Of a stretch of 64,000 nucleotides of DNA, positions 40,481-61,256 are shown piece by piece. The first letter of the stretch is position 1; every line of letters begins with the position of its first letter. Location: NCBI GenBank assembly GCA_002416125.1, contig DIBU01000008.1, forward strand, positions 79,665 to 143,664. Reading direction: 5' to 3'. Made by a program: the position numbers and the translations under genes. Source of the DNA: Halieaceae bacterium UBA5044 (GTDB lineage: Bacteria; Pseudomonadota; Gammaproteobacteria; Pseudomonadales; Halieaceae). Below the pieces are notes generated by a model. That model did not search any database, was not told the origin of the DNA, and saw only the letters and a program-made list of their open reading frames with translations.

Positions 40481-42697
<2,217 letters not shown>

Positions 42698-42701
<4 letters not shown>

Positions 42702-45700
42702 GATGCAGCTCCTGCGCTGTTCTTCGAGTCCTCAAGCACCACCAGTGCCTGCCCCGCGGCGACGCGACCGCCGGCGGTCGGCAACACCTGGGTGACCGTG
42801 CCATCGCAGGGGGCAGATACGGCAATCTCCATCTTCATCGATTCCAGCACCAGCAGCGCATCGCCGCGGCCCACGGTATCCCCCACCTGCACGCGCAGCT
42901 GCCAGACACTGCCGGAAACGGGGCTGTCCACGACGGTGGCGCTGTCGGGCCAGCTCTGCTCTTCCACAGCCGGGGGCTGCTCTTCTTCAGCGAAGTTGAA
43001 CTGCCCGCTGGCGTGCCACTGCGCCAGCTCTGCCGCGAAGGCCTGTTGACGGCGGCTACGGAAGTCGTCGATGGCCCCTGCATGGTCGGCCAGCAGCTGC
43101 TCGTAGTCGGCCAGTGAGAACTGGCTCTGCTCAATGGTCAGCGGATAGCGCCCCTGCGGGAAGTCACGACGGATTTGCTGCAGCTCGTCGTGACTGACTT
43201 CATAAAAGCGAATCTGGTCGAAGAAACGCAGCAGCCAGGGCTCCTCGAAGGCGTCGGTACGTCGATAGCGGTTCCACATCTGCAGGGTGCGCCCGACGAA
43301 CTGGTAGCCTCCCGGGCCCTCCATGCCATACACGCAGAGATAGGAACCCCCGATACCCACGGAGTTTTCTGCCGTCCAGGTGCGCGCGGGATTGTACTTG
43401 GTGGTGACCAGGCGGTGCCGGGGGTCTACCGGCGTAGCCACCGGCGCCCCGAGATAGACATCACCCAGCCCCATCACCAGGTACGCGGCCTCAAATACAA
43501 TGCGCTTGACGGCCTCGATGTCTTCGAGCCCGTTGATGCGGCGAATGAATTCCAGGTTACTCGGGCACCAGGGGGCATTCTTTCGCACGGACTGCGTGTA
43601 TTTTTCGATGGCGAGCCGGCAGGCCTCATCATCCCAGGACAGCGGCAGGTGCACGATGCGTGAGGGCACGCTGAGTTGCGCCAGTTGCGTGGCCAGCTCG
43701 CGCTCGCCGCGCTCGAGGTGCGCAAGCAGGGCATCGTGGCCCAGCACCTGGCTGTCGTAGTGAATCTGCAGCGAGCGGATCCCCGGGATCAACTCGCGCA
43801 GCCCCGGCAGCGAGTATTGCTGCAACCACTGCATGAGTGCATGGGCCCGGAAGCGCAGCCGAATATCGAGTTCCTGCTCGCCGTACTCGACCAGCAGAAA
43901 GTGGTCTCCCGCGCTGCGGCAGACAATCTCGTCACCGAAGGTCTCCGCGGGGAAGCGCGCCAGCACCGGCGACAGCGGTGCCGCCGGCTGCCACTCACAG
44001 GCAACCGGTGCAAGCGCGGCAATGGCCTCACTCTGGGCGGCCTCGAGCGCCACCGCCTGGGGCAGCGACACAGGCACAAAGCGCAGCGTGTCGCCAGCCC
44101 GCAGCTGCCCGAGCTTCCACAGATCCGCGGTAATCACCGTCGCCGGGCACACGAACCCTCCCAGTGAGGGGCCATCCGGGCCGAGAATAACGGGCATATC
44201 ACCGGTGAAATCCACCGTGCCGAAGGCGTAGCCATTGTCGTGAATGTTGGAGGGGTGCAGGCCTGCCTCACCACCGTCGGCACGGGCCCACTGCGGTTTC
44301 GGGCCAATCAGGCGCACACCCGTGCGGCTGGAGTTGTAGTGAACCTCCCAGTCGGTGGCAAAGAATGTGGCGATGTCGTCATCCGTGAAGAAATCAGGGG
44401 CGCCGTGGGGGCCGTAAATTACCCTCAGCTGCCACTGCCGGTGGATGTCGGGCTGCAGTGCAGTGGGAAGCCGCTGCGCTGCCGCGGGGAGCGCAGGCTC
44501 CTCACTCAGGTGCAGCACGTCACCGGCCCTCAGCGCACGGCCGTTGTGGCCGCCGAACTGGCCGAGTGTGAAGGTGGAGCGCGAACCGAGATACGCCGGG
44601 CACTGAAAACCGCCGCGTACCGCGAGGTACGCGCGCGCCCCGGCTTCACGCACCCGTCCCAGTTGCAGTGTCTGGCCCGCGCGCACGGCAACCACCTCCC
44701 ACGGAAAGACGGGTTGCTCATCGAGGGTGGCCTCGATCGCCGCGCCGGCAATCACCATTTGCGTATCGACAGCGAAGCGCAACAGCGGGCCCTGCAGGGT
44801 AATCTCCAGAGCGCTGGCATCGGCCTCGTTGTTCAGCAGGCGGTTCGCGAGGCGGAACGAGTAGCTGTCGAAAGGGCCGGAAGGCGGCACGCCAACATCC
44901 CAGTGCCCCTGCCGACCCGGGTAGTCCTGCAGTGTGGTCTGTGTTCCGCCCTGCAGCACATCAACCCGCGCCGGGCGATGACTGAAGCGGTTCAGGTAGC
45001 GGGTGGTCACCTGTCCCTGCAGCAGCGTGGCATCGCGGCTCAGGGCCCGCAGGTAACCGAGATTGGTCTCACTGCCGTAGAGTTCGATCTCGTCGAGGGT
45101 GCGCTGCAGCTTCTGCAGTGCCGCGCTGCGGTCGGCGGCGTGCACAATCACCTTGGCCAGCATTGGATCAAAGAAGGGAGGCACCTCAACGCCGGACTCA
45201 ATCCAGTGGTCAATGCGCACCCCGTCGCCGGAGGGAAAACTGACGTGGCTCAGCAGGCCCGCGCAGGGCTGAAAGTCCAGCGACGGGTCCTCGGCGTAGA
45301 CGCGCACCTGCACGGCGTGACCCCGTGGCCGCAGGGCGACGCGCTCGGCATCCAGGTCGGGAGCAGTGCCGGCAGCAATGCGCAGCATCCATTCCACCAG
45401 GTCTACGCCATACACTTCTTCCGTCACGCCGTGCTCAACCTGCAGCCGCGTATTGACCTCGAGAAAATAAAACGCTGCCGTGTCGGCATCGTAGATGAAC
45501 TCCACGGTGCCGGCGTTGCGGTAGCCTATGCTCGACAACAGGCGTTCAGCGGTACTGTGCAGAGCGGTACGGGTCGCGTCCTCCAGATTGGGGGCGGGGC
45601 ATTCTTCAACCACTTTCTGGTTGCGTCGCTGGCTTGAACAGTCACGCTCCCCGAGCGCCAGCGCCCTGCCCTGGCCGTCTCCCACCACCTGCACTTCAAT

Positions 45701-46321
45701 GTGCCGGGCACGGCCGATGAATTTCTCCAGGAACACGCTGTCGTCAGCGAAGTTGTTGGCGCCCAGCCGACGCACAGAATCAAACGCACCGGCCAGCTCT
45801 GCTGCATCGTGGCAAAGCTGCATGCCTATGCCGCCACCGCCAGCCGTGCTCTTCAGCATCACCGGATAGCCAATACGCAGCGCCTCTGCTTCCGCCGCCG
45901 CCAGCGTGTCGAGCAACCCGGAACCCGGCAACAGTGGAACACCCGCGGCCTCCGCCAGGTCCCGGGCCCGGTGCTTGAGCCCAAAGGCCTGCATCTGCTC
46001 AGGTGTCGGCCCGATAAAGGCGATGCCCGCCGCTTCGCAGCGCCTGACGAATTCAGCGTTTTCGCTGAGAAAACCGTAGCCCGGATGAATGGCCTGCGCG
46101 CCGCTCTCGCGCGCCACCTCGAGAATGCGCTCCATGTTGAGGTAGGTCTCGGCGGCACCCCCCTCCCCCAGGCAGAAAGCCTGGTCCGCCTGTCGCACAT
46201 GCAGGCTGTCGGCATCGCAGTCTGCATATACCGCCACAGAGCGGATATCCATTCGACGCAGGGTGCGCAGGATGCGGGTGGCGATCGCCCCCCTGTTGGC
46301 TACAAGTACAGTGTCAAACAT
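42698..46321 (-). CDS. urea-carboxylase-family biotin carboxylase, probably guanidine carboxylase
   Basis: ATG 46321 (the track start is TTG 46327). N-terminal biotin carboxylase (MFDTVLVANRGAIATRILRT), central KipI/KipA-like carboxyltransferase domains, C-terminal biotinyl motif LVLESMKMEIAV. The guanidine assignment rests on the upstream ykkC riboswitch and the DUF1989 pair. Confidence 0.9.
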
Positions 46322-46393
46322 CGTCAAACCTGGCGCGGGTCGTCCCGTCTCATCGTTGCCGGCTATGGTCGTCCACAGCCGGGGTTATCTGAT

Positions 46394-47035
46394 TCAGCGA
46401 TCCCAGACCAACACCTCAACCGGCGTTGGATTAAAACCATTGCAGGGATTGTTCAGTTGGGGGCAATTGGAAATCAGCACCAGCACATCCATCAGCGCCG
46501 TCAATTCGACATATTTGCCCGGCGCGGAAATACCGTCCTCAAAGGTCAGGCCGCCCTCCGCGGTGACTGGCACGTTCATGAAAAAGTTGATGTTGTGGCC
46601 GATATCACGCTTGTGCAGGCCATACTCGGGGTGTTCGGCAATCGCCAGCATCCAGCTGTCGCGACAGGAGTGCATGCAGCGTTTCTCAAGGTCGTAGCGC
46701 ACCGTATTGCTCTCACTGGCGCAGGCGCCGCCCAGGGTGTCGTGACGACCACAGGTGTCCGCGACAATTTCCAGCATGGGACGGTTGCGGCTGGAACGCA
46801 GTATGGACCCCGCGCTCAGGTACACATTGCCCTGTTCGCGCAGGGTATCGGTCGCGCTGTAGCGCTCGGCGCTGTCCTCTGCGTTGAAGAACAGGGTATC
46901 AGCGGCCTGATTGCCCTCGAGATCCAGAATACGCAGTGTCTGGCCCGCGTTCAGCCGACCCAGGTAATAGTCGCCGGCGGGCACGGTGGTGCGGGAATGC
47001 GCCTCATCGGGGCGCCGTACACTTTCAGTCAACAT
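46394..47035 (-). CDS. DUF1989 urea-carboxylase-associated protein (carboxyguanidine deiminase subunit candidate)
   Basis: Trimmed to ATG 47035. About 213 aa. Paralogous to the adjacent gene. This is the standard pair found beside urea-type carboxylases. Confidence 0.8.
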
Positions 47036-47045
47036 GGTGGACTCC

Positions 47046-47762
47046 TCAGCCTCCCAGGTGATACAGCAGGTTGTTGTGGAAGCCGCGCCGGTTCTCATCG
47101 CAATGATTCAGGCAGATGTCGTCCTCAGCCACCGGAGCCGCCTTGCCCAGTGCGATATGCACGGGGCTACGCGGATAGGACGGCGCGCGATGCAGTGGAT
47201 GGGGGCAGGCGTGGAGCAGTACCAGCGTGTCCATCTCAAAGCGCAGGGTGACGTGGCTGCCGGCCGCGCTATGCCCCTCCACCCGACGCAGATTCCCGTC
47301 CTCGTCGGTGGAAACACGGCTGAACCAGTTGATATTGGCGGCCATATCCGCCGCACCGAGCCCATACTTGGCGAGTTCGACAAGAAACGCATCGTGGCCA
47401 TTCTGGTGCCAGTCGTTGCGATCGCCCTGGTAATCGCGGCCGCCCCACTGTTGCGCGACATGTTCGGCACGGGAATTGCCGCATACCGTCTCATGCCACC
47501 CCAGGGAGTCCTCCACAATGGAGGCAAAAATGCGGCCCATATCCGAATACAGGCAATGCCCCCGGGTGAGCTTGAAGGTGTGCTGGCATTTAAGCGTGTC
47601 GGGTGCGTTGTAGCGCTCCTGCAGGTTTTCGGGGTTGTAAAACAGCATCCCCAGATTGGCGTCGCCGCGGCTGTCGGTAAGCCGCATTGCTGTCCCCCTG
47701 CGCAGGCGCAGTGACCAGTGGCCACCGGGAGCGATTTCGGTTTCATACTCGCAAGCGTTCAT
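47046..47762 (-). CDS. DUF1989 urea-carboxylase-associated protein (carboxyguanidine deiminase subunit candidate)
   Basis: Trimmed to ATG 47762 ([23 protein letters not shown]...). About 238 aa. Confidence 0.8.
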
Positions 47763-47766
47763 GATG

Positions 47767-48543
47767 TCATTCCGTTTCTGTTGCCGTGCGCGCCAGGTCG
47801 CGATCAATGTCAGACAGGGTGTCCCGGTCAATCTTGCCTACCGGCAAGTCGTAGGTGATGGTCGCGCCATAGGCGTCGGGTGCCTGGGGATCGTGTCGTG
47901 TCTTGTCGAATACCCAGAGCCGGGTACCCAGGTAGAAACCCTCCTTGAGATCGTGGGTGACCATGAACACCGTGAGCCGGTACTGGCGCCAGAGGCGCAG
48001 CACGAGGTCGTGCATGTCGGCCCGGATACCGGGGTCCAGGGCACCGAACGGCTCGTCGAGAAGGAGAATACCGGGGCGGCCAAGCAGCGCCTGGGCGATG
48101 GCGAGACGCTGGCGCATGCCACCGGAGAGCTCGGCGGGATACTGCCCCTGCGCGTGGGACAGACCCACTTCCTCGAGCAGGGCCAGGGCCTCCTCCCGCG
48201 CCGCGCGGCGCGCGCTGCCAAACAGTGCGCCGGTAAGATTGCGGCGGGAGAAACCGCGAGCAGCCATCACGTTCTGCAAAACCGTCATATGCGGGAACAC
48301 GGAGTACTGCTGGAACACGATGCCCCGGTCCGGGCCCGGTTCGCCGGGTACGGGCTTGCCGTGCAGCAGTAACTCACCGCTGCTGACGGGCTCGGTGCCC
48401 AGCAGCATGTTCAGGAAGGTGCTTTTACCGCATCCCGAGGTGCCCACCAGGGTGATGAACTCTCCTTCCTCAACCCGCAGGTTGACGCGCTCCAGCACCA
48501 CTTTGTCACCGTACTTCTTCCACAGATTGCGCGCTTCAATCAT
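47767..48543 (-). CDS. ABC transporter ATP-binding protein (NitT/TauT family)
   Basis: From ATG 48543. Walker A GTSGCGKST, signature LSGGMRQR, Walker [12 protein letters not shown]. Confidence 0.9.
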   Translation of the reverse strand: MIEARNLWKKYGDKVVLERVNLRVEEGEFITLVGTSGCGKSTFLNMLLGTEPVSSGELLLHGKPVPGEPGPDRGIVFQQYSVFPHMTVLQNVMAARGFSRRNLTGALFGSARRAAREEALALLEEVGLSHAQGQYPAELSGGMRQRLAIAQALLGRPGILLLDEPFGALDPGIRADMHDLVLRLWRQYRLTVFMVTHDLKEGFYLGTRLWVFDKTRHDPQAPDAYGATITYDLPVGKIDRDTLSDIDRDLARTATETE

Positions 48544-49361
48544 CAGTGGGCCCCCTGGTGATGCCACGGAAACAGGCGACGGCTGAGGGCTGCCAGCAGC
48601 GCATCAATCACAAACGCCAGCAGGGTGATCCAGGCTACATAGGGCAGGATAACGTCCATCGCCATGTAGCGGCGCACCAGAAAGATGCGATAGCCCAGGC
48701 CCTCGGTCGCGGCAATCGCTTCGGCGGCAATGAGAAACAGCCAGCCGGCGCCCAGCGAAAGACGCACTGCGTCGACCAGTCGCGGCATCAGCTGCGGTAA
48801 CAGCACCCGGCAGATGATCTGACTGGTATTCGCTCCCAGAGTTTGCGCCTTGACCAGCTGCTCCGAGGGTATCTCCTGCGTGCGCCGCTGTATGTCGCGG
48901 GCAATGAACGGTGTGATGCCAATGGCGATCAAGGCCACCTTCGACAATTCACCCAGACCAAACACGATGAACAGGACGGGAAGAATCGCCAGCGGGGGAA
49001 TCAGCGACACCACGGTCAGCAGGGGACTCGCCGTCGCTGCCACCAGCGGCAGGGCACCGGTGAACAATCCCAGTGCAAGGCCGATCACCGCCGCGATCAC
49101 CACCCCCAGCCCAAGCCGGGTAAGGCTGCTCAGCGTGTCCTCCCAGAGCAGGTAGTCACCGCTGCGCTTGCTCGGCTCGAAGGCCATGCGCTGTATGGCA
49201 TCGCCGATCTGCGCGAAGCTGGGCAGCAGTTTGTCTGCGGGGTTTTCCGCCAATCGGGCATCCGAAGCCAGCATGTACAGCAGCACCAGTGCCACAAAAG
49301 GCAACAGGGTAAGCAGCACGCGCAGCATCGGCGCAGGTGTCTGGTTAATCAGGCGTTTCAT
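48543..49361 (-). CDS. ABC transporter permease (NitT/TauT family)
   Basis: From ATG 49361 (MKRLINQTPAPMLRV...). Six TM helices, EAA-like loop. The stop shares a base with the ATPase start. Confidence 0.85.
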   Translation of the reverse strand: MKRLINQTPAPMLRVLLTLLPFVALVLLYMLASDARLAENPADKLLPSFAQIGDAIQRMAFEPSKRSGDYLLWEDTLSSLTRLGLGVVIAAVIGLALGLFTGALPLVAATASPLLTVVSLIPPLAILPVLFIVFGLGELSKVALIAIGITPFIARDIQRRTQEIPSEQLVKAQTLGANTSQIICRVLLPQLMPRLVDAVRLSLGAGWLFLIAAEAIAATEGLGYRIFLVRRYMAMDVILPYVAWITLLAFVIDALLAALSRRLFPWHHQGAH

Positions 49362-49420
49362 GATCAATCCTTGATGGGGTGGAGCACGGGAGAGCAACGC
49401 TCCCGTGCCCTGCCGTGGGC

Positions 49421-50461
49421 CTAGAGTTCGCCGTCCAGGGCCATTTGCATGTAGGTCGGATCAAAACGCAGCTTGATGTTATTGCTATCACCGTAGACGC
49501 CCGCGGGTGTCTCCACACCGATGAACGTGGCACCAGGCGCGCCCTCACCCAGCAAGCCGTGTTTGTGCGAGAACTCCGCCACCGTCTGCATGGTGGCCTT
49601 CACCTGCTCGCTGTTGGTCAGGGCCAGCGCTTCCGCCGGGGTGTAGAACATTTCGGTGCTGGCCAGTTGCGACTCAAAACCTGCAAGGTCGGTACCGGAC
49701 AGTTCCGCCAGGAAGGTCTTGGCGGCGGTCGCGCGCTCATCGCCACCGTTCATGTGTGCCATGATTTCGTACCACGCCCCGGTCAGCGCCTTGCCCAGCG
49801 CCGGGTAGGCCGCCAGCGTCTCGGTGTTGATGATCAACAGGTCGATCACCTCGCCGGGGATCTGGGAGGAGTCGAATACGAGGTGGCTGTCTGGCATGGC
49901 GGCCACTTCACTCAACAGGGGATTCCAGGTCGCGACTGCCGTCACACCGGGTGTCGCATAGACCGCCACCATATCGGCGTCCGAGGTGTTCACCACCTGG
50001 ACATCGCGCTCGGTAAGACCCACGCTTTCCAGGCCGCGGGCCAGCAGATAGTGGGACACGCTTAGCTCGACCAGATTCACGGTCTGCCCCTTGATGTCCG
50101 CCATTGAGTCCTTGCCTTTGAGCACGATACCGTCATTGCCGTTGGAAAAGTCGCCGACGATCAGCGCCGTGCTGTCCACACCGCCCGCCGCCGGAATGGT
50201 CAGCGCATCCATGTTCGTCATGGTGCAGGCATCGAACTCGCCCATGCTGTACTGGTTGATGGATTCGATGTAGTCGTTGATCTGCACCACTTCGATATTG
50301 ATGCCGTATTTGTCGGCCCACTTCTTCACGATGCCCTGTTCGGCACCGTAGGCCCAGGGTACCCAGCCGACGTAGATCGACCAGCAGATCTTGAAGCTGT
50401 CGCGGGCCGATGCCGTTGACGACAACATCACAAGGAGCAGGAATAGGGTAAATCGCTTCAT
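49421..50461 (-). CDS. periplasmic substrate-binding protein of the urea-carboxylase-region type (NMT1-like); candidate guanidine-binding protein
   Basis: From ATG 50461 (MKRFTLFLLLVMLSSTASA signal). FKICWSIYVGWVPWAYG motif, as recalled for the ABC_peri_uca family. Confidence 0.85.
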   Translation of the reverse strand: MKRFTLFLLLVMLSSTASARDSFKICWSIYVGWVPWAYGAEQGIVKKWADKYGINIEVVQINDYIESINQYSMGEFDACTMTNMDALTIPAAGGVDSTALIVGDFSNGNDGIVLKGKDSMADIKGQTVNLVELSVSHYLLARGLESVGLTERDVQVVNTSDADMVAVYATPGVTAVATWNPLLSEVAAMPDSHLVFDSSQIPGEVIDLLIINTETLAAYPALGKALTGAWYEIMAHMNGGDERATAAKTFLAELSGTDLAGFESQLASTEMFYTPAEALALTNSEQVKATMQTVAEFSHKHGLLGEGAPGATFIGVETPAGVYGDSNNIKLRFDPTYMQMALDGEL

Positions 50462-50519
50462 GGTGTACCTCTCAGTCGGGTTGGGTCGGTTGATCACAGA
50501 GTACCCCCGGCATTTCGCC

Positions 50520-50622
50520 TTCAGTTCTCCCGGGCTTTTATCCCGCCGTGTAACCCTTCACCGAAAGGTCGAGTGCTCTCGGACCAGTCACCACCGGTAC
50601 AGTGGTCGGAACCCTAGCGCTC
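50520..50622 (-). promoter_or_regulatory. guanidine-I (ykkC) riboswitch aptamer in the 5' leader of the ABC/carboxylase operon
   Basis: The reverse complement reads GCGCUAGGGUUCCGACCACUGUACCGGUGGUGACUGGUCCGAGAGCACUCGACCUUUCGGUGAAGGGUUACACGGCGGGAUAAAAGCCCGGGAGAA. All three invariant ykkC blocks are present in order. Confidence 0.88.
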
Positions 50623-50671
50623 TATTGGTTTTCATGTCACGTCATGTCAGGAGTACGGACAGGTAAGGCAA

Positions 50672-50687
50672 AGCAGGAACCATGCCA
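50672..50687 (-). promoter_or_regulatory. sigma54-type -24/-12 promoter for the riboswitch-led guanidine operon
   Basis: The reverse complement is TGGCATGGTTCCTGCT, with GG-N10-GC at exact consensus spacing (consensus TGGCAC-N5-TTGCW). About 50 nt upstream of the aptamer. Confidence 0.55.
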
Positions 50688-50740: not shown

Positions 50741-50894
50741 TGCACCGGAAAATGCACCAAATGCATGCCCTGCGCCATTCTGGTGCATCGCGCCAGGGCG
50801 CCCGGGCTGGCGGACGGAGTGACCCCGAACGCCGCTCGCCGCCACCGCCGCGACCTGCACCAAAAAGGACGCGGGATGCACACCTCGCGGTGCA
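50741..50894. promoter_or_regulatory. NtrC-like enhancer region shared by two divergent sigma54-type promoters
   Basis: One near-consensus site, TGCGCCATTCTGGTGCA, at 50771..50787 (consensus TGCACC-N5-GGTGCA). TGCACC half-sites at 50741, 50753 and 50856. Palindrome ATGCAC-N8-GTGCAT at 50876..50895. Confidence 0.5.
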
Positions 50895-50978
50895 TCGCCC
50901 CGCGACACACCCGAGTCAATCTTTACCGATCCGGTATTTTTTATTATTTTTCAATAGGTTGTGATTATACATACATCT

Positions 50979-50994
50979 TGGCATGGAAGTTGCT
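50979..50994 (+). promoter_or_regulatory. sigma54-type -24/-12 promoter for the TIM-barrel/desaturase/ABC operon
   Basis: TGGCATGGAAGTTGCT with exact GG-N10-GC spacing, 35 nt upstream of ATG 51029. Preceded by an AT-rich tract containing an IHF-like TTCAATAGGTTG. Confidence 0.6.
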
Positions 50995-51028: not shown

Positions 51029-51901
51029 ATGCAATTACGCACCTTTAAAACCCTGTGGGGCCACACAGGCAGCATCGACCAGGGCGCCCTGCTCGCCCGC
51101 ACTGCAGGGTGTGCCGGCTTAGAGGCGCCGGCAATACACAGCGCGCCCGGGCACCTCGAGCAACTCGCCAGTGCGCTGCAGACACATGAGCTGGAGTGGA
51201 TCCAGGAAATCTGCACCGCGGGCTCCTACGTTCCCCGGCGAGACGCCAGCGTCAGCGAACACCTCGAGGACCTGGAGGCACAGATTGTGCTGGGCAAACC
51301 TCTCGCGCCACGCTTTATCAACGTGATGGGCGGCTGCGATGCCTGGCCCGTTCAGGACAGCGTGGACTTCTTCAGGGCGGCCATGGATATCGCCGACCGG
51401 CACGATGTGCTCTGCTCCTTCGAGACACACCGTGGACGCAGCTTCTATTGCCCCTGGAACACTGTGGCGATTCTGCAGGCGCTGCCGGCACTGAAAATCA
51501 CCTGTGACTTCAGCCATTGGGTGGTCGTCTGCGAACGCCTGATGGACAGTGAGTGGGACGCCGTCACCCTGGCCGCGCAACACGCACACCACATTCACGG
51601 GCGCATCGGTTATGACCAGGGGCCCCAGGTGCCCCACCCCGGCGCACCCGAGTATGCCGACGCACTGGCCAGTCACCAGCGCTGCTGGGAGGCCATCTGG
51701 CAGGCGCAGCAGGCGCGGGGCTACAGCGAAACAACACTGACGCCGGAATTCGGGCCCGATGGCTATCTGCACCACCTGCCGTTTACCAACGCCCCCATCG
51801 CAGACCTCTGGGAACTCAACCGCTGGATTGGCGCCGAGGAGCAAAGGCACTTCGCGCGCTGGTCGCATGCCAACGCCACCAAGGAGGCCCGTCATGCGTG
51901 A
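51029..51901 (+). CDS. xylose-isomerase-like TIM-barrel protein (sugar phosphate isomerase/epimerase family), function unknown
   Basis: The real gene is the 3' part of track ORF 50765..51901, from ATG 51029 (MQLRTFKTLWGH...). Metal-ligand-like motifs SFETHRG, CDFSHW, HIHGRIG and TPEFGP are typical of the AP_endonuc_2 fold. Confidence 0.75.
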   Translation: MQLRTFKTLWGHTGSIDQGALLARTAGCAGLEAPAIHSAPGHLEQLASALQTHELEWIQEICTAGSYVPRRDASVSEHLEDLEAQIVLGKPLAPRFINVMGGCDAWPVQDSVDFFRAAMDIADRHDVLCSFETHRGRSFYCPWNTVAILQALPALKITCDFSHWVVVCERLMDSEWDAVTLAAQHAHHIHGRIGYDQGPQVPHPGAPEYADALASHQRCWEAIWQAQQARGYSETTLTPEFGPDGYLHHLPFTNAPIADLWELNRWIGAEEQRHFARWSHANATKEARHA

Positions 51902-52907
51902 CGCTCTCAAACTGCGCGACCCCGCGGGCGCGCACTACACGCTGCTGGTGCTCGCCTATATTGCACTGACCTATACAGGCGGCTGGGCGGCGCTGTTCCA
52001 GCCCAGTGCGGCGGTCAACGCGCTGGGCGTTGTCGTGCTGGCACACAGCATGCTGATCGCCGCCTACCTGCTGCACGATTGCGGACACAACGCGGTGTTC
52101 ATGTCGGCGAAGACCAACGCGGCACTGGGCAAGGTTCTCAACTGGATAACCGGCAGCTGCTACGGGCGCTTTGAGGATATCCGCTACAAGCACATGCGCC
52201 ACCATGTCGACAACTACGACCCCGTGGTGTGGGACTACCGCAGCTTCCTGAAACGCCACCCCGGCCTCGCGAGGCTGGTGCATGCCGCGGAATGGGCCTA
52301 CATACCCGCCGTTGAAATCATGATGCACACCATGCTGGTCCTCGCACCCTGGGTGATCGAGTCCAAACGCGCTCAACGCGGTCGTGTGCTGCGCGTATTG
52401 CTGGTTCGTGGTGCACTGCTCGGGCTGGTACTGTTCATCAGCCCCGTTGCCTTCCTGCTGTACGCGCTGGCGCAGCTGTTGCTGCTCACTGCCCTGCGCT
52501 TCATGGATTGCTACCAGCACAACTACGAGGTGATCTTTAATCTCGACGACCCGGATACAGTGTTTCCCCACAAGGGTGATGCCAAGTACGAACAGCGCAA
52601 CACCTACAGCAACCTCCTGTCACACCGCTTTCCCGCCATCAACCTGCTGGTGCTCAATTTCTGCTATCACAATGCACACCACGAGAAGCCCACGCTGGGC
52701 TGGTACCGCCTGCCAGAGCTGCATCGCAGCATGCAGCCCGACGTCGAGGCACAGACACTGGGTTTTGTGCCGCAGGCGCGTGCCTTTCACAAACACCGGG
52801 TGGCACGCATTTACGCTGAAGAATACGGCGCCGATGAGGTAAAGACCTCACTCAACGAGGGGCGCGCGGTCGGTGTCGACGCGCTCAGCTTCCTGACGGC
52901 GTTCTAG
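51894..52907 (+). CDS. membrane fatty-acid-desaturase-family di-iron protein, substrate unknown
   Basis: ATG 51894 has AAGGAGG upstream and overlaps the previous stop (ATGCGTGA). Three His boxes: HDCGH, HMRHH, HNAHH. Several TM helices. Confidence 0.85.
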   Translation: MRDALKLRDPAGAHYTLLVLAYIALTYTGGWAALFQPSAAVNALGVVVLAHSMLIAAYLLHDCGHNAVFMSAKTNAALGKVLNWITGSCYGRFEDIRYKHMRHHVDNYDPVVWDYRSFLKRHPGLARLVHAAEWAYIPAVEIMMHTMLVLAPWVIESKRAQRGRVLRVLLVRGALLGLVLFISPVAFLLYALAQLLLLTALRFMDCYQHNYEVIFNLDDPDTVFPHKGDAKYEQRNTYSNLLSHRFPAINLLVLNFCYHNAHHEKPTLGWYRLPELHRSMQPDVEAQTLGFVPQARAFHKHRVARIYAEEYGADEVKTSLNEGRAVGVDALSFLTAF

Positions 52908-52913
52908 ATCGCG

Positions 52914-53717
52914 ATGCATCAGGCCAACCCGCTATTCAGTTCCGCCCGCAGAGTCGCTGCCGTCGCCGGCTCCCGAACTGTGCTGGGCATTCTGGGCTGG
53001 GCGCTGTTCATCGGCGGCTGGTGGCTTGCCGCGCATGCCGAGATCGCGCCACCGCGCCTGTTTCCCGGGCCGGAAAAAGTGTTTACCAGTTTGTATGAAT
53101 TACTGGTGGAGAAGGATTTTGCCAGCGATATCTGGGCGAGCGTGAAGCGCATTCTGCTCAGTTTCGGCATCGCCGTGGCGATTGCCCTGCCGCTGGGTCT
53201 GCTGATGGGCGCCTACCGTCCCATCGATCGCGTACTGGGCCCGGTAGCCAGCGCCTTCCGCTACCTGCCGGCACCGGCGTTCATCCCACTGTTACTGATG
53301 TGGCTGGGCACCGGGGACGAGCAGAAAATCGCCCTGTTGGTGATCGGCGTGCTGTTTTTCCTCATCATCATGCTCGCCGACGTTACCCGCCAGGTGCCCA
53401 GGGTATACATCGAAACCGCCCGCACCCTCGGCCTGCGCGCGCCCCAGATTCTGCTTTCGGTCACGTTCAGGGCCAGCCTGCCAGGCTATCTGGATGTGCT
53501 GCGACAGATGCTGGCGGTGAGCTGGACGTATCTGGTAATCGCCGAAATCGTCGCCGCCACCGATGGCATTGGCGCCATGATGATGCGCGCCAAGCGCTTT
53601 GTGCATATTGACGACATCATGGCCGGCATTCTGGTCATCGGCCTGCTCGGCCTGCTTTTTGACGCACTGTTCAAACTGCTGCATCGCACTGCGTTTCGTT
53701 ACCTCGAGTCCCACTAG
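52914..53717 (+). CDS. ABC transporter permease (NitT/TauT family)
   Basis: 267 aa, six TM helices, with the conserved cytoplasmic loop ETARTLGLRAPQILLSVTFRASLP. Confidence 0.85.
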   Translation: MHQANPLFSSARRVAAVAGSRTVLGILGWALFIGGWWLAAHAEIAPPRLFPGPEKVFTSLYELLVEKDFASDIWASVKRILLSFGIAVAIALPLGLLMGAYRPIDRVLGPVASAFRYLPAPAFIPLLLMWLGTGDEQKIALLVIGVLFFLIIMLADVTRQVPRVYIETARTLGLRAPQILLSVTFRASLPGYLDVLRQMLAVSWTYLVIAEIVAATDGIGAMMMRAKRFVHIDDIMAGILVIGLLGLLFDALFKLLHRTAFRYLESH

Positions 53718-53745
53718 CAGCACTCAACCGCAAAGGAGCACCACT

Positions 53746-54771
53746 ATGCGCTATATTCGATCCGGTATTGCCATCCTGGCCCTGGCCCTGGGGTCGGCCA
53801 CCCAGGCCGCTGACCCCGTGAAACTCTCACTCTTTTCCTGGCCCGGCTACGGGTTCTGGTTTATCGCCAAGGAGAAGGGCCTGACCGAGGGGTTGGAGCT
53901 CGACATCAGCATCATCGAGGATCCCTACCAGAGCTTCGCCCTGATGACGGCGGGGGAACTCCACGCCACCTCAAGCACCGCGGAGTATGGTCCCATTGCG
54001 GCCGACAAGGACGTTGGCATCAAGCTGGTGACCTACACCAATCCGTCCTACGGCACGGATAAAATCATCCTCGCACCCGGCATCACCAGCGCGGAGCAGC
54101 TCAAAGGCCAGACAGTCGCAGTGCTGGAGGGTGGCCTGACACAGATCTTCATGGCTGAATGGCTCACCGACAACGGCGTGGGAATCAATGAAGTCACCTT
54201 CACCAACCTGATCATGGACGATGCCGTGGGCGCGATGGTGGGCGGCACCGCGGCCGCCGCGGAATTCTGGGAACCCTTTGGCTCCCAGGTGCTTGAAGCC
54301 ATGCCAGGCGCCACGGTGGCAGCAGACTCCACCGAGGAAAAGTACATCACCACGGCGCTGCTGGGCGACGCCCTCTACATGAGCACGGCCTTCCTGGAGC
54401 AGCGGCCTGAAGACGCGGCCAAACTCACCCGGGCCTACTTCAACGCCGTGGATTTCTGGAAGACAAACACCGCGGAAGCCAACCAGATCATCGCAGATGG
54501 CCTGCAGTTCACGGTGGCGGACGTCGAGCAGGTGCTGGGCAGCACGGGCGACATTCTCAAGGGCGGTATCTTCGTCTTCGACCGCGACCAGGCCGCGATC
54601 TTCATGGGCCTGAAAGACGGTGAACTGCCCCTCGGAATTGCCGCCGACGGCATGCAGAACCACTGGGATATCACCACGGACTGGTGGTTGAAGTTTGGCT
54701 TCATCGACAAGGCCATGCCGATGGCGGCCGGGGTCGACACGACGCCGCTGGCGGCAGCGCTGAACAAATGA
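53746..54771 (+). CDS. periplasmic substrate-binding protein (NMT1/THI5-like), ligand unknown
   Basis: From ATG 53746 (AAAGGAG upstream). Signal peptide MRYIRSGIAILALALGSATQA. Layout resembles the binding protein of the neighbouring guanidine operon. Confidence 0.8.
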   Translation: MRYIRSGIAILALALGSATQAADPVKLSLFSWPGYGFWFIAKEKGLTEGLELDISIIEDPYQSFALMTAGELHATSSTAEYGPIAADKDVGIKLVTYTNPSYGTDKIILAPGITSAEQLKGQTVAVLEGGLTQIFMAEWLTDNGVGINEVTFTNLIMDDAVGAMVGGTAAAAEFWEPFGSQVLEAMPGATVAADSTEEKYITTALLGDALYMSTAFLEQRPEDAAKLTRAYFNAVDFWKTNTAEANQIIADGLQFTVADVEQVLGSTGDILKGGIFVFDRDQAAIFMGLKDGELPLGIAADGMQNHWDITTDWWLKFGFIDKAMPMAAGVDTTPLAAALNK

Positions 54772-55562
54772 CCGCAGGCACACACAGCGGACTTACCGTC
54801 TCGGGCGTCAGCAAGCGTTTTCTGCTGCGCTCGGGACAAACCCTGACCGCGCTGGACAACATCAACTTCGAACTGCCAAAAACCGGGGTCGGGGTGTTAC
54901 TGGGACCGTCCGGTTGCGGTAAATCCACCTTGCTGCGGATTATTGCCGGCCTGGAGACACAGGATGAAGGCGACATCACCGTGGATGGCAGCACCGTCCT
55001 CGGGCCCGGTATAGACCGCGGCATGGTCTTCCAGAACTACAGCTCCTTTCCCTGGCTGACCGTAGAGGAAAACGTCGCGTTCGGCCTGAAAGCCCGGGGC
55101 GAGGCGCTCAGCCTGCGCGAGGGGGTGGTTCCGTATTTCATCAAGGCAGTCAAGCTGGATGGCTTCGAACGCGCCTACCCCCACCAGCTCTCGGGCGGCA
55201 TGCAGCAACGCGTCGCCATCGCCCGCAGCCTGGCCAGTAATCCGTCACTGCTGTTGATGGATGAACCCTTCGGCGCACTGGACCCGGAAACACGCTGGCA
55301 GATGCAGAGCCTGCTGTTGGAAATTGTCCATCAGGAACGTACCACTGTGCTGATGGTGTCCCACGACATCGAGGAAGCGCTGTATCTGGGTGACGTGGTG
55401 TTTTTTATGGGCACGCGGCCCGGGCGCCTGCTGGAGACCATCCGTCCCGGCCTGGAGAAGAGCAGCACCGATCGCGATGCCATACTGGATTTCGATGAAT
55501 ACCGCTTTCTTGAGCGAAAAATTCGGCAGATGATGCGTGCGCAGTCACTGGACTGTGCGTAG
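54768..55562 (+). CDS. ABC transporter ATP-binding protein (NitT/TauT family)
   Basis: ATG 54768 overlaps the previous stop (ATGA). Walker [10 protein letters not shown], signature LSGGMQQR, Walker [12 protein letters not shown]. Confidence 0.9.
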
Positions 55563-56156
55563 CAGGCGCAGAAACTCACCGACAAAGAAGTCGAGATTGT
55601 TATCCAGGTCGGTGATGCCGGAATCGAACAGCCAGCTCTGGGTCAGTCCCATCAGGTAAGCATACATGGACAGCGCCACCGTGCGGCTCGCAACACCTCC
55701 CTGAACGCCCTGCTCCCGACGGTAGCGCTCCACCCAGGCCGCAAAGGTCGCAATCAGGGAGGCCGTCAATGCGCGTTCGCGCGCCAGTGTTTTTGATACC
55801 GCCTCGGTAAACTCGGTCTTGTTGAGAAAGATCTCGAATGACTGCCGAAAATAATGATCATCCAACAGCATACGCAGCCACTGGCGAGAGAAGTCCGCTG
55901 CGGCCGCGAGCGGGTCGCTGGCCTCGTGGTGCAGCGCAACCAGCCGCTCCAGCGGCAGCTGTGAGTAGGCGAGGATTTCTTCAAACAACTCTTCTTTGCT
56001 GGCGAAATGCCAGTAGATGGGCCCGCGGGAGCACCCTGCCTCCTCCGCAATCAGTCGCAGGGTGGTGCCGCTGTAGCCTCGTTGGCCAAAGAGTTTGAGC
56101 GCCGCATCCACCAGGCTCTGCCGGGTTTTCGCTGCATCCTCCTTGGTTCGCCTCAT
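55545..56156 (-). CDS. TetR/AcrR-family transcriptional regulator
   Basis: MRRTKEDAAKTRQSLVDAALKLFGQRGYSGTTLRLIAEEAGCSRGPIYWHFASKEELF HTH domain. Lies downstream of the GS-like gene on the same strand. Confidence 0.85.
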   Translation of the reverse strand: MRRTKEDAAKTRQSLVDAALKLFGQRGYSGTTLRLIAEEAGCSRGPIYWHFASKEELFEEILAYSQLPLERLVALHHEASDPLAAAADFSRQWLRMLLDDHYFRQSFEIFLNKTEFTEAVSKTLARERALTASLIATFAAWVERYRREQGVQGGVASRTVALSMYAYLMGLTQSWLFDSGITDLDNNLDFFVGEFLRLLRTVQ

Positions 56157-56235: not shown

Positions 56236-57588
56236 TTAACCGAAGAGTCGCAGATAGCGCGCCACTTCCCAGTCCGATACGATGTTGTGGTAACTGTCCC
56301 ATTCCGCCCGCTTGAAGTCGACAAAGGCCTTGTGCATCGCGGGGCCCAGCACCTGATAGGCCAGTTCATCAGCGGCGATAGCCTCTGTCGCCTCGGCGAG
56401 GGTCTTCGGCAGACACTGAATGCCGGCCTTGGCGATTTCCGCATCACTGTAATGGTACATGTTCTCCCGGTGCGGCTGACCGGGGTCAATACCCTGCTCT
56501 ATGCCCTCCAACCCTGCGGCGAGCATCAGGGCCGCACCGAGATAGGGATTGCAGGCGATATCCGGCGCCCGGCACTCGACCCGTGCACCGGCACTGGGAA
56601 TACGCAACATATTGGTGCGATTGTTATTGCCGTAACAGCAGAACACCGGTGCCCAGGTGGAGCCGGACATGCTGCCCTGACGCACCAGCCGCTTGTAACT
56701 GTTCACGGTGGGCGCGACCACCGCGCTGATGGCCTTGGCGTGGCGCAACACGCCCCCGATAAACTGGTAGGCGAGCTCGGAGACACCGCAGTCGTAGCGA
56801 TCGGCATCCGGGCTCACTGCGAACAGATTCTGCCCGGTGTCCACACTCGCCAGGGACATGTTGTAATGGGCGCCACTGCCCGTGCGGTCAGCGAAGGGTT
56901 TGGGCATGAAACTGGCGAAGGCACCATGCTTGCGCGCAATTTCGTTGGCCAGCAAGCGGAAATACACCAGGCGATCAGCCATGGTCAGCGCATCCGCGTA
57001 ATTGAAGTCGATCTCGAACTGGCCGTTGGCATCTTCGTGATCGAAGGAATAAACGCCCCAACCCATGTCAGTCAGTGCCTGTACCAACTCGTCGATAATC
57101 ACGATGTTATCCATCATGCTGGGGATGTCGTAACAAGGCTTGCCCAGGGTATCGCGCTCACTGAAAGGCACCGGGCGCCCGTCAGCCCCCTTGCGCAGGA
57201 TGAAAAACTCGGTTTCTATCCCCAGGTTGAAGGTAAACCCCATGGCGGCGGCTTTCGCCAGCTGACGCTTGAGAATCGTGCGGGAGCAGGCCTCGAAGGG
57301 TTCTCCCTGCAGATACAGGTCGCTGGCAAACCAGGCCAGCTCCGGGTTCCACTGGCACTGCTGCATGGACGCCATGTCGGGCATGGCAGCCACTTCATCA
57401 TCGGCAATGTCCTGTGGCACGCCGTCGAGGGCCGCGCCGGTAAACAGCTCCGAGCCGGCAAACATCTGCTTGAAATGGCCGACAGGCACAAACTTGCCCT
57501 TGCTGGCGCCGTGAATATCCACGTAGCTCGCCATACCGTATTTAATACCCTGTTCCAGACAACGCTGTTTCAACTGTTCAATGTTCAT
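56236..57588 (-). CDS. glutamine synthetase family protein, type III / gamma-glutamyl-amine ligase-like
   Basis: 450 aa. GS catalytic-domain motifs (NLGIETEFF, GSGAHYNMSL, NRTNMLRIP). The size and N-terminus fit GlnT/PuuA/GmaS-like enzymes rather than GlnA. Confidence 0.85.
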   Translation of the reverse strand: MNIEQLKQRCLEQGIKYGMASYVDIHGASKGKFVPVGHFKQMFAGSELFTGAALDGVPQDIADDEVAAMPDMASMQQCQWNPELAWFASDLYLQGEPFEACSRTILKRQLAKAAAMGFTFNLGIETEFFILRKGADGRPVPFSERDTLGKPCYDIPSMMDNIVIIDELVQALTDMGWGVYSFDHEDANGQFEIDFNYADALTMADRLVYFRLLANEIARKHGAFASFMPKPFADRTGSGAHYNMSLASVDTGQNLFAVSPDADRYDCGVSELAYQFIGGVLRHAKAISAVVAPTVNSYKRLVRQGSMSGSTWAPVFCCYGNNNRTNMLRIPSAGARVECRAPDIACNPYLGAALMLAAGLEGIEQGIDPGQPHRENMYHYSDAEIAKAGIQCLPKTLAEATEAIAADELAYQVLGPAMHKAFVDFKRAEWDSYHNIVSDWEVARYLRLFG

Positions 57589-57607: not shown

Positions 57608-57658
57608 ATGTTTCTTGCTAGTCAGAAGCATCCAAGAAACATGCCAGAATGCATGTTT
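57608..57658. promoter_or_regulatory. nested inverted repeats (candidate TetR operator) in the GS-like / MetX-like divergent intergenic region
   Basis: ATGTTTCTTG (57608..57617) pairs with CAAGAAACAT (57633..57642). AAACATGC (57637..57644) pairs with GCATGTTT (57651..57658). A sigma54-like TGGCATGTTTCTTGGA lies on the minus strand at 57631..57646, but its -12 element is GG, not GC. Confidence 0.4.
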
Positions 57659-57690
57659 AAATTGTTCGACCTGAACCCGGAGTCAAGTCA

Positions 57691-58701
57691 TTGAAAAACA
57701 AGCTGTATTGGCAGGAAAACGAACATGCGCTGGGGGACCTTGTGCTGGAAAGCGGCACGGTGCTGCGCAATGCCCGCCTGCGCTACCACCAATTTGGTGC
57801 GCTGAACGCACCAAAAGACAACCTCGTGTTGCTGCCCACCTACTACGGCGGCGTTGCCGCCAGCAACCGTGCCTGGGTGGATGACCCCGACAGCCCACTC
57901 GGCAGCGGTGACTACTGCGTGGTCATTCCCTGCCTGTTTGGTGCCGGGGAGTCCAGTTCGCCCAGCAACACGCCAGCGCCACAGTCCGGACCGGACTTCC
58001 CACAGGTGAGCATCGGCGACAACGTGCGTGCACAACAGCTGCTGCTACAGGCGCGCTTTGGGGGTGCCAATCCCCGGCTGGTGATGGGCTGGTCGATGGG
58101 GGGAATGCAGGCACTGCACTGGCACAGGGCCCGCGGCAACGCCGTTGGCAGCGTGCTCGCCGTCTGTGCCACCATCGGCTGTTACCCACACAACCGGGTT
58201 TTTCTCGACGGTGTGGCGGCGGCCCTCACGGCGGATGCGGCCTTTGCCGACGGTCACTACCGCACACCGCCGGTCCGCGGCCTTGGCGCATTTGCCACAG
58301 TCTATGCCGGCTGGGCCTACAGTCAGGCTTTCTTCAGCAACGCGCGCTACCGCGAATTGGGTTTTGCCGATATCGGGGACGTACTGGACTACTGGAGAGA
58401 GGATCACCTGCAGCAGGACGCCAACAACCTGTTGCTGCAACTGCGCACCTGGCAGCAGGCTCCGCTGCCGACGGCTGACGCCGATGATGCGCAGCCGGGC
58501 TGCCCCGGCATCCTCATGCCCTGCAGCACTGATCTCTATTTCACGGCCGAGGACGCCGCGCACGATGCGACGGTCCTGGGGATGGAGTGTCGGGTGATCG
58601 AATCGGAATTTGGCCATGTCGCCGGTGGCCCTGGGCGCGTGGCCGCCGCAAGCCGCCAGATCTTCGCCGCTGCGGCCGAGCTGCTCGCCGCCAGCGCCTG
58701 A
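57691..58701 (+). CDS. alpha/beta hydrolase of the homoserine O-acetyltransferase (MetX-like) family
   Basis: TTG start. Nucleophile elbow MGWSMGGMQAL. Overall MetX-like layout (LGDLVLESGTVLRNARLRYHQFG...). Confidence 0.75.
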   Translation: MKNKLYWQENEHALGDLVLESGTVLRNARLRYHQFGALNAPKDNLVLLPTYYGGVAASNRAWVDDPDSPLGSGDYCVVIPCLFGAGESSSPSNTPAPQSGPDFPQVSIGDNVRAQQLLLQARFGGANPRLVMGWSMGGMQALHWHRARGNAVGSVLAVCATIGCYPHNRVFLDGVAAALTADAAFADGHYRTPPVRGLGAFATVYAGWAYSQAFFSNARYRELGFADIGDVLDYWREDHLQQDANNLLLQLRTWQQAPLPTADADDAQPGCPGILMPCSTDLYFTAEDAAHDATVLGMECRVIESEFGHVAGGPGRVAAASRQIFAAAAELLAASA

Positions 58702-60056: not shown

Positions 60057-60088
60057 GGGAATCACTCTCGTAGTTAGTCTCGGTGGAT

Positions 60089-61164: not shown

Positions 61165-61256
61165 GTGTGGTTCTCCTTGGTTTGGCAGTCAAAAAAAATC
61201 TGTGCCAGGCACGGAACTTTTTTGCTCTGCATAATTCGCGTTTGCACCCCGGTCTT

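Follow-up and report, generated by a model that had tools for sequence, protein, structure and literature searches.

A TIM-barrel protein, a membrane di-iron desaturase-family enzyme and an ABC importer as a candidate accessory module of guanidine metabolism

Gene content and operon structure

The stretch of DNA analysed here (64 kb, hereafter the window; coordinates of genes, promoters and sites given without a locus label are window positions) originates from an uncultured Haliea sp. metagenome-assembled genome (MAG; locus L006, 100% identity). It harbours an operon of five genes which encode a TIM-barrel protein (TIM), an integral-membrane desaturase-family protein (DES) and the permease, periplasmic binding protein and ATPase of an ATP-binding cassette (ABC) importer (Table 1). 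The operon is divergent from a set of genes for guanidine uptake and degradation, and its anatomy, regulation, distribution and possible role in guanidine metabolism are considered below.

All five open reading frames are located on the forward strand and translate without interruption within the limits set by the initial annotation, whose overlaps and gaps were reproduced exactly when the junctions were read from the sequence. The ATG of the DES gene (51894) overlaps the TGA of the TIM gene (51899-51901; ATGCGTGA), with AAGGAGG 7 nt upstream, and the stop codon of DES (52905-52907) is followed by a 6-nt gap (52908-52913) and the permease ATG (52914). Between the permease stop codon (53715-53717) and the ATG of the binding-protein gene (53746), AAGGAG is found inside a 28-nt gap, and the binding-protein and ATPase genes share an ATGA overlap (54768-54771). 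The start codons fit the closest database proteins, with lengths of 290 aa (100% identity) and 337 aa. A simple promoter/terminator scan showed no sigma70 promoter, and terminator-like hairpins occurred at chance level (7 against 5.6 expected), which neither supports nor contradicts co-transcription. As suggested by the gene arrangement and the upstream region, the five genes probably constitute one sigma54-dependent, NtrC-activated operon.

Table 1. Features of the window, with the operon and its control elements listed before the flanking genes
Feature	Position	Strand	Basis or remark
TIM barrel (TIM), 290 aa, predicted divergent xylose-isomerase-like metalloenzyme	51029..51901	+	PF01261
Desaturase-family enzyme (DES), 337 aa, integral-membrane di-iron	51894..52907	+	PF00487, His boxes
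ABC permease, NitT/TauT type	52914..53717	+	BPD_transp_1
Periplasmic binding protein, NMT1/SsuA-like, signal peptide ending AQA-AD	53746..54771	+	NMT1 and NMT1_2
ABC ATPase	54768..55562	+	ABC_tran
Sigma54-type -24/-12 promoter TGGCATGGAAGTTGCT of the TIM-DES-ABC operon	50979..50994	+	Sequence match, conserved in orthologues
Conserved block ATTATACATACAT abutting the -24 element; candidate operator (TetR?) or IHF-region element	50964..50976	+	Halieaceae alignment
NtrC-type enhancer region (predicted), five TGCACC/GGTGCA half-sites	50741..50894		Half-site density, conservation
Sigma54-like element TGGCATGGTTCCTGCT facing the guanidine operon (candidate)	50672..50687	-	Two departures from consensus
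Guanidine-I riboswitch heading the divergent guanidine uptake/degradation operon	50525..50628	-	Rfam, 95.2 bits
Guanidine-II riboswitch, internal to the guanidine operon	46336..46380	-	Rfam
Guanidine carboxylase pathway operon	40887..50497	-	TIGR03427 binding protein and neighbours
TetR-family regulator, convergent, overlaps the ATPase gene by 18 nt	55545..56156	-	Conserved with TIM-DES
Glutamine-synthetase type III-like ligase (GS-like), no ammonium site	56236..57588	-	TIGR03105, 563 bits
MetX-like alpha/beta hydrolase, divergent from the GS-like gene	57691..58701	+	Conserved with the island

The two enzymes and the importer

The soluble protein of xylose-isomerase fold recognised in the initial annotation is borne out by a marginal PF01261 match (34.0 bits against a cut-off of 31.1), by a TIM-barrel AF2 model (pLDDT 84.7) and by Foldseek matches to ketose 3-epimerases, UlaE, DgpB-C, IolE and AsbF (probability 1.0, TM-score 0.6-0.68, 10-19% identity). 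Comparison of orthologues identified E132, D160, H188/H190 and E240 as invariant; E132 and D160 align with the matching motifs of Art22, and the histidines and the second glutamate are placed by strand position only. Judged from alignment and model, these acidic and histidine residues probably occupy the E-D-H-E metal site of the fold. Phmmer and profile searches of the PDB detected no related solved structure (E-values of at least 0.056; best profile E-value 0.18), no NCBIfam model matched, and TIM fits no characterised subfamily of sugar isomerases, epimerases or dehydratases. Furthermore, the family is compact, comprising 173 cluster representatives at E <= 1e-30 among 1.84 billion. The ketose 3-epimerases, IolE and DgpB-C act on alpha-hydroxy-carbonyl groups, include C-C lyases and share with TIM the fold and probably the same single-metal site; nevertheless, they are related to it at the low identity given above, and no sugar genes are present around the TIM gene.

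DES had been described as an integral-membrane enzyme with the three His boxes HDCGH, HMRHH and HNAHH, and this description holds. The boxes are positioned at residues 61, 100 and 259, their His residues are invariant in 26 orthologues, and four hydrophobic spans (17-35, 37-62, 137-155 and 163-204) produce the canonical desaturase order TM1-TM2-box1-box2-TM3-TM4-box3, in agreement with a PF00487 score of 115.1 bits (cut-off 29.7). Foldseek searches with the DES model (pLDDT 81.5) retrieved the desaturase-like subunit of the chloroplast Ycf2-FtsHi complex and, weakly, AlkB, without providing a functional lead. No curated NCBIfam equivalog fits the protein and no solved structure is detectably related to it by sequence.

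Among characterised enzymes, AlkB (with its rubredoxin and reductase) is, like DES, an integral-membrane di-iron His-box oxygenase, and DES orthologues adjoin rubredoxin genes. However, FtAlkB was the third-best Foldseek match and a weak one (TM-score 0.38), the spacing and sequence of the DES His boxes are of the desaturase type (PF00487), and the gene context is that of nitrogen and guanidine rather than alkane oxidation. GntB, the L-arginine gamma-hydroxylase of guanitoxin biosynthesis (NF041365), is a transmembrane desaturase-family enzyme acting on a polar guanidino compound, and thus the desaturase fold can handle such substrates; DES matches it weakly (18.6 bits against a cut-off of 380), and GntB itself serves biosynthesis, with its hydroxylation directed at a carbon distant from the guanidino group. 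With respect to the electron donor, tblastn of the window with rubredoxin found none. In P. tohonis (L086) the gene order is TIM-DES-rubredoxin-rubredoxin reductase, and rubredoxin also adjoins the Thioalkalivibrio-type loci; other orthologues have a gene for an FNR/2Fe-2S reductase nearby.

The importer components are below every equivalog cut-off: the permease scored 127 bits against 295 (SaoP) and 115 against 342 (TauC), the binding protein 77 against 163.5 (SsuA family) and 40.9 against 333.9 (TIGR03427), and the ATPase 227 against 360. By its domains, the transporter is a general NitT/TauT-type, binding-protein-dependent ABC importer, with the same family and component set as TauABC, SsuABC, NrtABC and the guanidine-operon importer (TIGR03427), although its parts fall short of all their curated thresholds. 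A PDB sequence search with the binding protein gave no meaningful relative. Its resemblance to the binding protein of the neighbouring guanidine system, as suggested initially, stands in so far as both belong to the same family, but the relationship is distant (26% identity).

The combination of these proteins had been regarded as uncharacterised. This view is sustained by the absence of a curated NCBIfam equivalog and of a related solved structure for either enzyme, and full-text literature searches found no description of the TIM/DES pair or of the cluster.

An additional observation concerns the Alcanivoracaceae (L028-L032, approximately positions 6180-8440 of the loci), where genes for an FNR-type reductase with a 2Fe-2S domain and for a second, different FA_desaturase are located immediately upstream of a small regulator gene (described below) and the TIM-DES operon.

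Promoter and predicted enhancer elements

The element TGGCATGGAAGTTGCT is located 34 nt before the first ATG, in keeping with the sigma54-type promoter proposed initially. Counted as a pattern with at most one mismatch, such elements occur six times in the window against 3.9 expected, which alone is not beyond chance; the promoter is credible because it is conserved in orthologues. In 58 of the 92 scanned loci, a -24/-12 element precedes the first gene at a distance of 45-70 nt; these loci amount to nearly all the gammaproteobacterial ones and include Halieaceae, Marinobacter, Halopseudomonas, Methylophaga, Alcanivoracaceae and P. tohonis. Operons that begin with DES (L072, L080, L091, L093 and L095) are also preceded by such an element. 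In the alignment of Halieaceae upstream regions (read without the L027 row), three blocks survive in otherwise diverged sequence, namely the pair TGCACCAAAAAG (50856) ... GGTGCAT (50889), which is kept across Halieaceae genera, ATATACATRCAT, which touches the -24 element, and the -24/-12 element itself. The ATTATACATACAT block is nearly invariant in these regions and is among the commonest shared 8-mers.

Apart from the promoter, the intergenic region upstream of TIM carries five half-sites in 150 nt and represents the densest 200-nt stretch of the 64 kb for such sites. The best NtrC-like 17-mer (TGCGCCATTCTGGTGCA, 50771-50787) has one mismatch, and 17-mers of this type (at most two mismatches) are present in 22 of 54 orthologous upstream regions as compared to 2.9% of random 300-nt stretches. 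The operon has no neighbouring gene for an enhancer-binding protein, as would be expected if a global activator such as NtrC were at work. Together, the conserved promoter, the enrichment of 17-mers and the half-site cluster support, at the level of sequence, the Ntr/sigma54 control of the TIM-DES-ABC operon that had been put forward in the initial annotation. The accompanying suggestion of an enhancer shared with the guanidine operon is plausible, since the second sigma54-like element, TGGCATGGTTCCTGCT (50687-50672, read on the minus strand), faces that operon and precedes the Guanidine-I aptamer by about 45 nt. The guanidine operon itself may thus be doubly controlled, by nitrogen limitation through TGGCATGGTTCCTGCT and by guanidine through its riboswitch.

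Other regulatory features were observed in orthologous loci. A gene for a small protein (approximately 125-140 aa), probably a winged-helix regulator, is divergent from TIM or DES in 33 loci (for example, L004 8554-8934, L005 2406-2783, L086 9414-9788 and L069 9439-9861); Pfam and NCBIfam gave no match for it. TTACATG/CATGTAA palindromes are present upstream in these loci, as in L004 (ATTTACATGC-N6-GCATGTAAAT), and the Halieaceae carry the TetR gene and a different conserved block in place of the small regulator and the palindromes.

Recurrence with guanidine genes and riboswitches

The genome scan yielded at least 577 relatives of the desaturase-like protein, from which 80 loci were fetched, and nine further contexts were taken from a search with a distant TIM orthologue. 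TIM-DES, with or without the ABC genes, is kept in about 55 of 85 loci from many gammaproteobacterial genera. Since the genes are retained amid unrelated flanks, the TIM-DES-permease-binding protein-ATPase set is, by its gene order, a mobile and self-contained module.

The Guanidine-I and Guanidine-II riboswitches of the divergent operon were confirmed by Rfam, as was the divergent placement described in the initial annotation. That operon encodes a binding protein (TIGR03427), permease and ATPase, CgdA/CgdB (DUF1989), guanidine/urea carboxylase and allophanate hydrolase. Similar neighbourhoods recur elsewhere: in at least eight lineages that differ in arrangement, the two enzymes are encoded within guanidine carboxylase operons or beside them (Table 2), and the guanidine carboxylase pathway is adjacent in six of the nine distant contexts sampled. 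The guanidine genes of the first four rows of Table 2 are no more than 10 kb from the module. A Guanidine-I riboswitch (Rfam) heads the operons of L087, L094 and L090, and a Guanidine-II riboswitch (Rfam) at 8061-8107 of L088 is situated directly upstream of the desaturase-like gene that starts at 8157.

Table 2. Arrangements of module and guanidine genes (GCA, guanidine carboxylase; AH, allophanate hydrolase; MBL, AiiA-like lactonase-fold hydrolase; SBP, binding protein; Gd-II, Guanidine-II riboswitch)
Locus	Arrangement
Haliea (window)	Guanidine carboxylase operon divergent
L062	CgdAB-GCA-AH-unknown-SDR-creatininase-TIM-DES-ABC, co-directional
L072, L080	DES-MBL-EamA, TIM, guanidine-type ABC, NikR-like, CgdAB, Gd-II
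L063	Guanidine-type binding protein between GS-like and TetR genes
L087, L094 (Sulfurimonas type)	SBP-permease-ATPase-CgdA-CgdB-DES-MBL-GCA-TIM-EamA-AH
L090	As L087/L094, without DES
L089	DES-MBL-TIM-EamA beside ABC and CgdAB-GCA-AH
L088 (Thiomicrorhabdus chilensis)	...CgdAB-GCA-AH-DES-MBL-TIM-EamA-SBP-creatininase family-GS-like
L093 (Nevskiales)	Divergent layout of the window, with creatininase-family, GS-like and NikR-like genes appended
L091, L095	Creatininase-family and GS-like genes

The recurrent partners of the two enzymes include rubredoxin and its reductase, the AiiA-like MBL, an EamA transporter, creatininase-family hydrolases and the GS-like ligase. The creatininase of L062 scored 328 bits against the TIGR04448 equivalog cut-off of 235, and its gene overlaps the start of TIM; a copy 73% identical to it is found near the module in Halioglobus L027. 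The MBL resembles AiiA and 4-pyridoxolactonase, is 68-75% identical from Campylobacterota to Halioglobus and adjoins DES or TIM in eight loci. Creatininase-family and GS-like genes follow the module as a pair in L088, L091, L093 and L095.

From this recurrence, it can be stated with high confidence that the TIM and DES genes belong to guanidine metabolism. A guanidine link that reflects nothing beyond an accident of nitrogen-gene clustering in Haliea is ruled out by the interleaved and riboswitch-gated arrangements in unrelated lineages.

Some of these loci display further features. NikR-like genes (RHH and nickel-binding domain) are present inside guanidine carboxylase operons (L072 15014-15463, L080 16646-17134, L088 573-1049 and L093 16176-16613), which hints at a link of the guanidine pathway to nickel or another metal. 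In L091, the GS-like gene is succeeded by one for a MOSC-domain protein (16866-17735); N-hydroxylated amidines and guanidines are compounds that MOSC/mARC proteins reduce, and N-hydroxyguanidine chemistry may be involved. Two copies of the module are found in unexpected bins, namely a Marinobacter-like copy on a contig binned as 'Candidatus Fonsibacter ubiquis' (L040) and a Halieaceae-like island (74-88% identity) in a MAG labelled Oleispira (L012); erroneous binning or recent transfer probably accounts for both.

Proposed function

The initial annotation had suggested the processing of a substituted guanidine, among other nitrogen-containing molecules, and it is to this that the neighbourhood evidence points, through a link that recurs in many arrangements beyond Haliea. 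The reading favoured here, with moderate confidence, is that the module imports a substituted guanidine and oxidatively releases guanidine from it, as an accessory to the guanidine carboxylase pathway. Under nitrogen limitation, the ABC importer would take up the substrate, for which methylguanidine or the creatine/creatinine family are the best candidates, with other N-alkyl guanidines as a possibility; both the recurrent creatininases and the amine ligase speak for the methylguanidine/creatine/creatinine family. DES, as a monooxygenase fed with electrons by a rubredoxin, ferredoxin or other small redox protein encoded elsewhere in the genome, would hydroxylate the carbon on a guanidino nitrogen, and TIM, as a metalloenzyme with a lyase or isomerase role, would split or rearrange the hydroxylated (hemiaminal or alpha-hydroxy-carbonyl) intermediate to yield free guanidine and an aldehyde. 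The guanidine would then open the Guanidine-I riboswitch of the divergent operon, be carboxylated and be hydrolysed to ammonia. Any amine formed alongside, methylamine for instance, would be captured by the downstream GS-like ligase. The identity of the substrate, the position hydroxylated and the roles given to TIM and the GS-like ligase are what we infer.

A precedent for such a scheme exists in Vreelandella boliviensis, in which the oxygenase MgdH hydroxylates methylguanidine and the lyase MgdL releases guanidine and formaldehyde, the pair being encoded in or beside a guanidine carboxylase operon that is headed by a Guanidine-I riboswitch and has a Guanidine-II riboswitch ahead of its carboxylase gene (PMC12508155). 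The N-(hydroxymethyl)guanidine hemiaminal is stable for more than 1 hour, hence the need for a dedicated lyase (PMC12508155). Both systems would thus employ an oxygenase and a second enzyme acting on the hydroxylated intermediate for nitrogen acquisition. However, the Vreelandella pair is made up of a soluble 2-oxoglutarate/Fe(II) dioxygenase (MgdH) and a small beta-barrel protein (MgdL), whereas the pair in the window consists of a membrane di-iron enzyme and a TIM barrel; judged by Pfam families and published descriptions, there is no homology between them. Furthermore, the operon in the window has its own ABC importer and a sigma54 promoter rather than a riboswitch. By analogy, DES and TIM are proposed as the non-homologous counterpart of MgdH and MgdL. 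A creatinine-to-methylguanidine-to-methylamine route is also recorded in a review in which the enzymes are not named (PMC12623156).

New here is a widely distributed set of accessory enzymes, from families never linked to guanidine, which would feed the guanidine carboxylase pathway. A bolder version of this proposal, tentative and in our view doubtful, holds that DES is the first membrane di-iron oxygenase for the catabolism of small polar guanidinium compounds, and that together with TIM (and MBL or creatininase where present) it makes up the hitherto unidentified gene set for the conversion of creatinine/creatine-type compounds or methylguanidine to guanidine.

Several points weigh against the import and oxidative release of guanidine from a substituted precursor. 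The operon in the window has a sigma54 promoter and lacks a riboswitch of its own, and no guanidine genes were found within 10 kb in most marine loci (Marinobacter, Alcanivorax and Halopseudomonas). Ammonia oxidisers possess the desaturase-like gene (45-48% identity) and the small winged-helix-like regulator only. L090 has TIM, MBL and EamA with no desaturase-like gene nearby, which implies that the two enzymes need not be an obligate pair. The MBL, EamA, SDR, MetX-like hydrolase, GS-like ligase and MOSC proteins are fitted loosely or left unexplained by the mechanism, and riboswitch-controlled genes could act on guanidine itself or on a by-product. Lastly, the His-box pattern of DES (HDCGH...) resembles that of acyl-lipid delta-12/omega-3 desaturases.

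In the ammonia oxidisers (Nitrosomonas and Nitrosospira; L064, L066, L069, L071, L074, L076-L078, L081, L082, L084 and L085), the 10 kb around the desaturase-like gene are free of TIM-barrel, transporter and guanidine genes, and an SDR or MetY gene is located downstream in some of them.

Alternative explanations

The alternative that survives best, although unlikely, places the module on an amine branch. Methylamine or another small amine, released from the imported compound by the guanidine pathway or another hydrolase, would be converted by the GS-like ligase to a gamma-glutamyl-alkylamide, which would undergo N-alkyl hydroxylation by DES and yield glutamine and an aldehyde through TIM or the creatininase/MBL, by analogy with the isopropylamine (Ipu) and aniline (AtdA) pathways. 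The GS-like protein of the window (PF00120, 338 bits) lacks the ammonium-binding residues of E. coli GlnA: Thr stands at the position of D50 and Ala at that of S53, and a longer loop devoid of Glu takes the place of the Glu327 flap. These active-site residues rule it out as an ordinary glutamine synthetase and, because the ammonium-site residues are not conserved, it is probably a GmaS-like gamma-glutamyl-amine ligase. Its gene is conserved downstream in about 19 loci, and orthologues occur inside the operons of L088, L091, L093 and L095 (51-55% identity, with 51% for those of L088 and L091). Methylguanidine, moreover, yields methylamine in some bacteria (PMC12623156). Nevertheless, many TIM-DES-ABC or DES-MBL-TIM-EamA loci have no GS-like gene within 10 kb, a TauT-type ABC importer would be an unusual route for methylamine, and no gamma-glutamyl hydrolase of known type is present.

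Improbable too, and rated slightly lower, is the salvage of cyclic acyl-guanidines (creatinine, glycocyamidine and the hydroimidazolones formed from guanidine with glyoxal or methylglyoxal), in which a creatininase or the MBL would open the ring before DES and TIM remove the side chain to give guanidine or methylguanidine. Such a gene set could be that of the creatinine-to-methylguanidine route, which is recorded with unnamed enzymes (PMC12623156) and has remained genetically unassigned. The true creatininase coupled to TIM in L062, its close copy near the module in Halioglobus and the MBL, conserved from Campylobacterota to Halioglobus and adjoining DES or TIM in eight loci, are all in its favour, but the window contains no creatininase or MBL gene, most module loci have neither within 10 kb, and the chemistry is speculative.

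The initial annotation had also considered lipid remodelling under nitrogen limitation and a sulfonate substrate, both of which are now unlikely. A genuine membrane-lipid desaturase or hydroxylase, with an unrelated transporter and TIM, would accord with the FA_desaturase score of 115 bits, with the delta-12-like His boxes (homologues are annotated as omega-6 desaturase in some sources) and with the occurrence of the gene alone in ammonia oxidisers. This explanation is rendered very unlikely by the tight linkage, often with translational coupling, of DES with TIM and the importer across orders, by the operons headed by a Guanidine-I riboswitch in which CgdB precedes DES and the guanidine carboxylase gene comes after it, and by the Guanidine-II riboswitch directly upstream of the desaturase-like gene in L088.

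Equally remote is a role in breaking down an O-methylated inosamine or another carbocyclic amino-sugar, after the manner of rhizopine catabolism. The moc system unites the same two Pfam families, MocC being xylose-isomerase-like and MocD a desaturase-family oxygenase, and it likewise includes a binding protein and acts on a nitrogen-containing polar substrate; IolE, in addition, is among the Foldseek matches of TIM. Both mocC and mocDEF have been described (PMC10107442). The likeness to MocC/MocD is one of analogy only: tblastn of DES against 72,556 plasmids gave a single distant cyanobacterial match and hence no sequence-level relationship, and equivalents of MocA, MocB, MocE and MocF are not present, nor is a Rieske ferredoxin or reductase. 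The binding protein and transporter belong to a different family, the regulation differs, and the hosts of the module include sugar-blind hydrocarbon degraders and chemolithoautotrophs.

Least likely of all is the uptake and oxygenolytic desulfonation of a sulfonate in the manner of the taurine/Ssu systems, since the transporter parts score best against TauC, SsuA and TauB-type models yet remain far under the equivalog cut-offs, the predicted regulation is by sigma54/NtrC-type elements and guanidine riboswitches rather than by sulfur starvation, and the module is present in sulfur-oxidising autotrophs.

Significance

Which natural encounters make guanidine riboswitches and carboxylase operons worthwhile is an open question, and only a few guanidine-producing reactions are known. 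If the bolder version of the proposal is true, the DES/TIM set would rank among the major natural sources of the guanidine that these riboswitches sense. Its hosts range from marine heterotrophs to sulfur-oxidising autotrophs and possibly include ammonia oxidisers. The gene set occurs in hundreds of genome species, among them Halieaceae, Marinobacter, Alcanivorax, Methylophaga, Thiomicrorhabdus, Sulfurimonas, Nitrosomonas and Nitrosospira. Identification of the substrate would add to the nitrogen sources known for marine and chemolithoautotrophic bacteria, extend desaturase-family chemistry to polar substrates, give a function to a compact orphan TIM-barrel family and perhaps fill in the genes that the creatinine-to-methylguanidine route still lacks. 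Since cultured carriers and a riboswitch-based guanidine sensor exist, the module is directly testable; one such carrier is Haliea salexigens DSM 19537, whose locus L008 shares the layout of the window.

Flanking genes and further observations

By conservation of gene order, the functional unit exceeds the five genes of the operon, as the TetR regulator, the GS-like ligase and the alpha/beta hydrolase are conserved with it. These three downstream genes are kept in Halieaceae, Alloalcanivorax and one Oleiphilaceae MAG, and the Methylophaga loci retain TIM-DES-TetR in the absence of the transporter.

A second sigma54 promoter was considered 5' of the GS-like gene (TGGCATGTTTCTTGG), but it has GG instead of GC at -12 and was not counted. 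The same upstream region (57640-57670, minus strand) contains AAACATGCATTCTGGCATGTTTCTTGG, which resembles the TIM promoter region ACATACATCTTGGCATGG and again carries GG in place of GC; as a sequence likeness, it may represent a degenerate or unusual sigma54 promoter with the same operator-like block.

Further downstream, a Gcw_chp (porin-like) gene and a gene for a marine-subtype ammonium transporter (60490-61395 and 58785-60065, minus strand) are located behind a sigma54-like element, TGGCACAGCACCTGCA (61272-61257). Two good NtrC-like 17-mers (61361-61377 and 61379-61395) are found upstream of this ammonium-transporter operon, as is the second densest half-site cluster of the window (61243-61392).

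On the other side, past the allophanate hydrolase end of the guanidine operon, genes for a DUF484 protein and a XerC-like tyrosine recombinase are present (38124-39739), followed by one for a HAD hydrolase.

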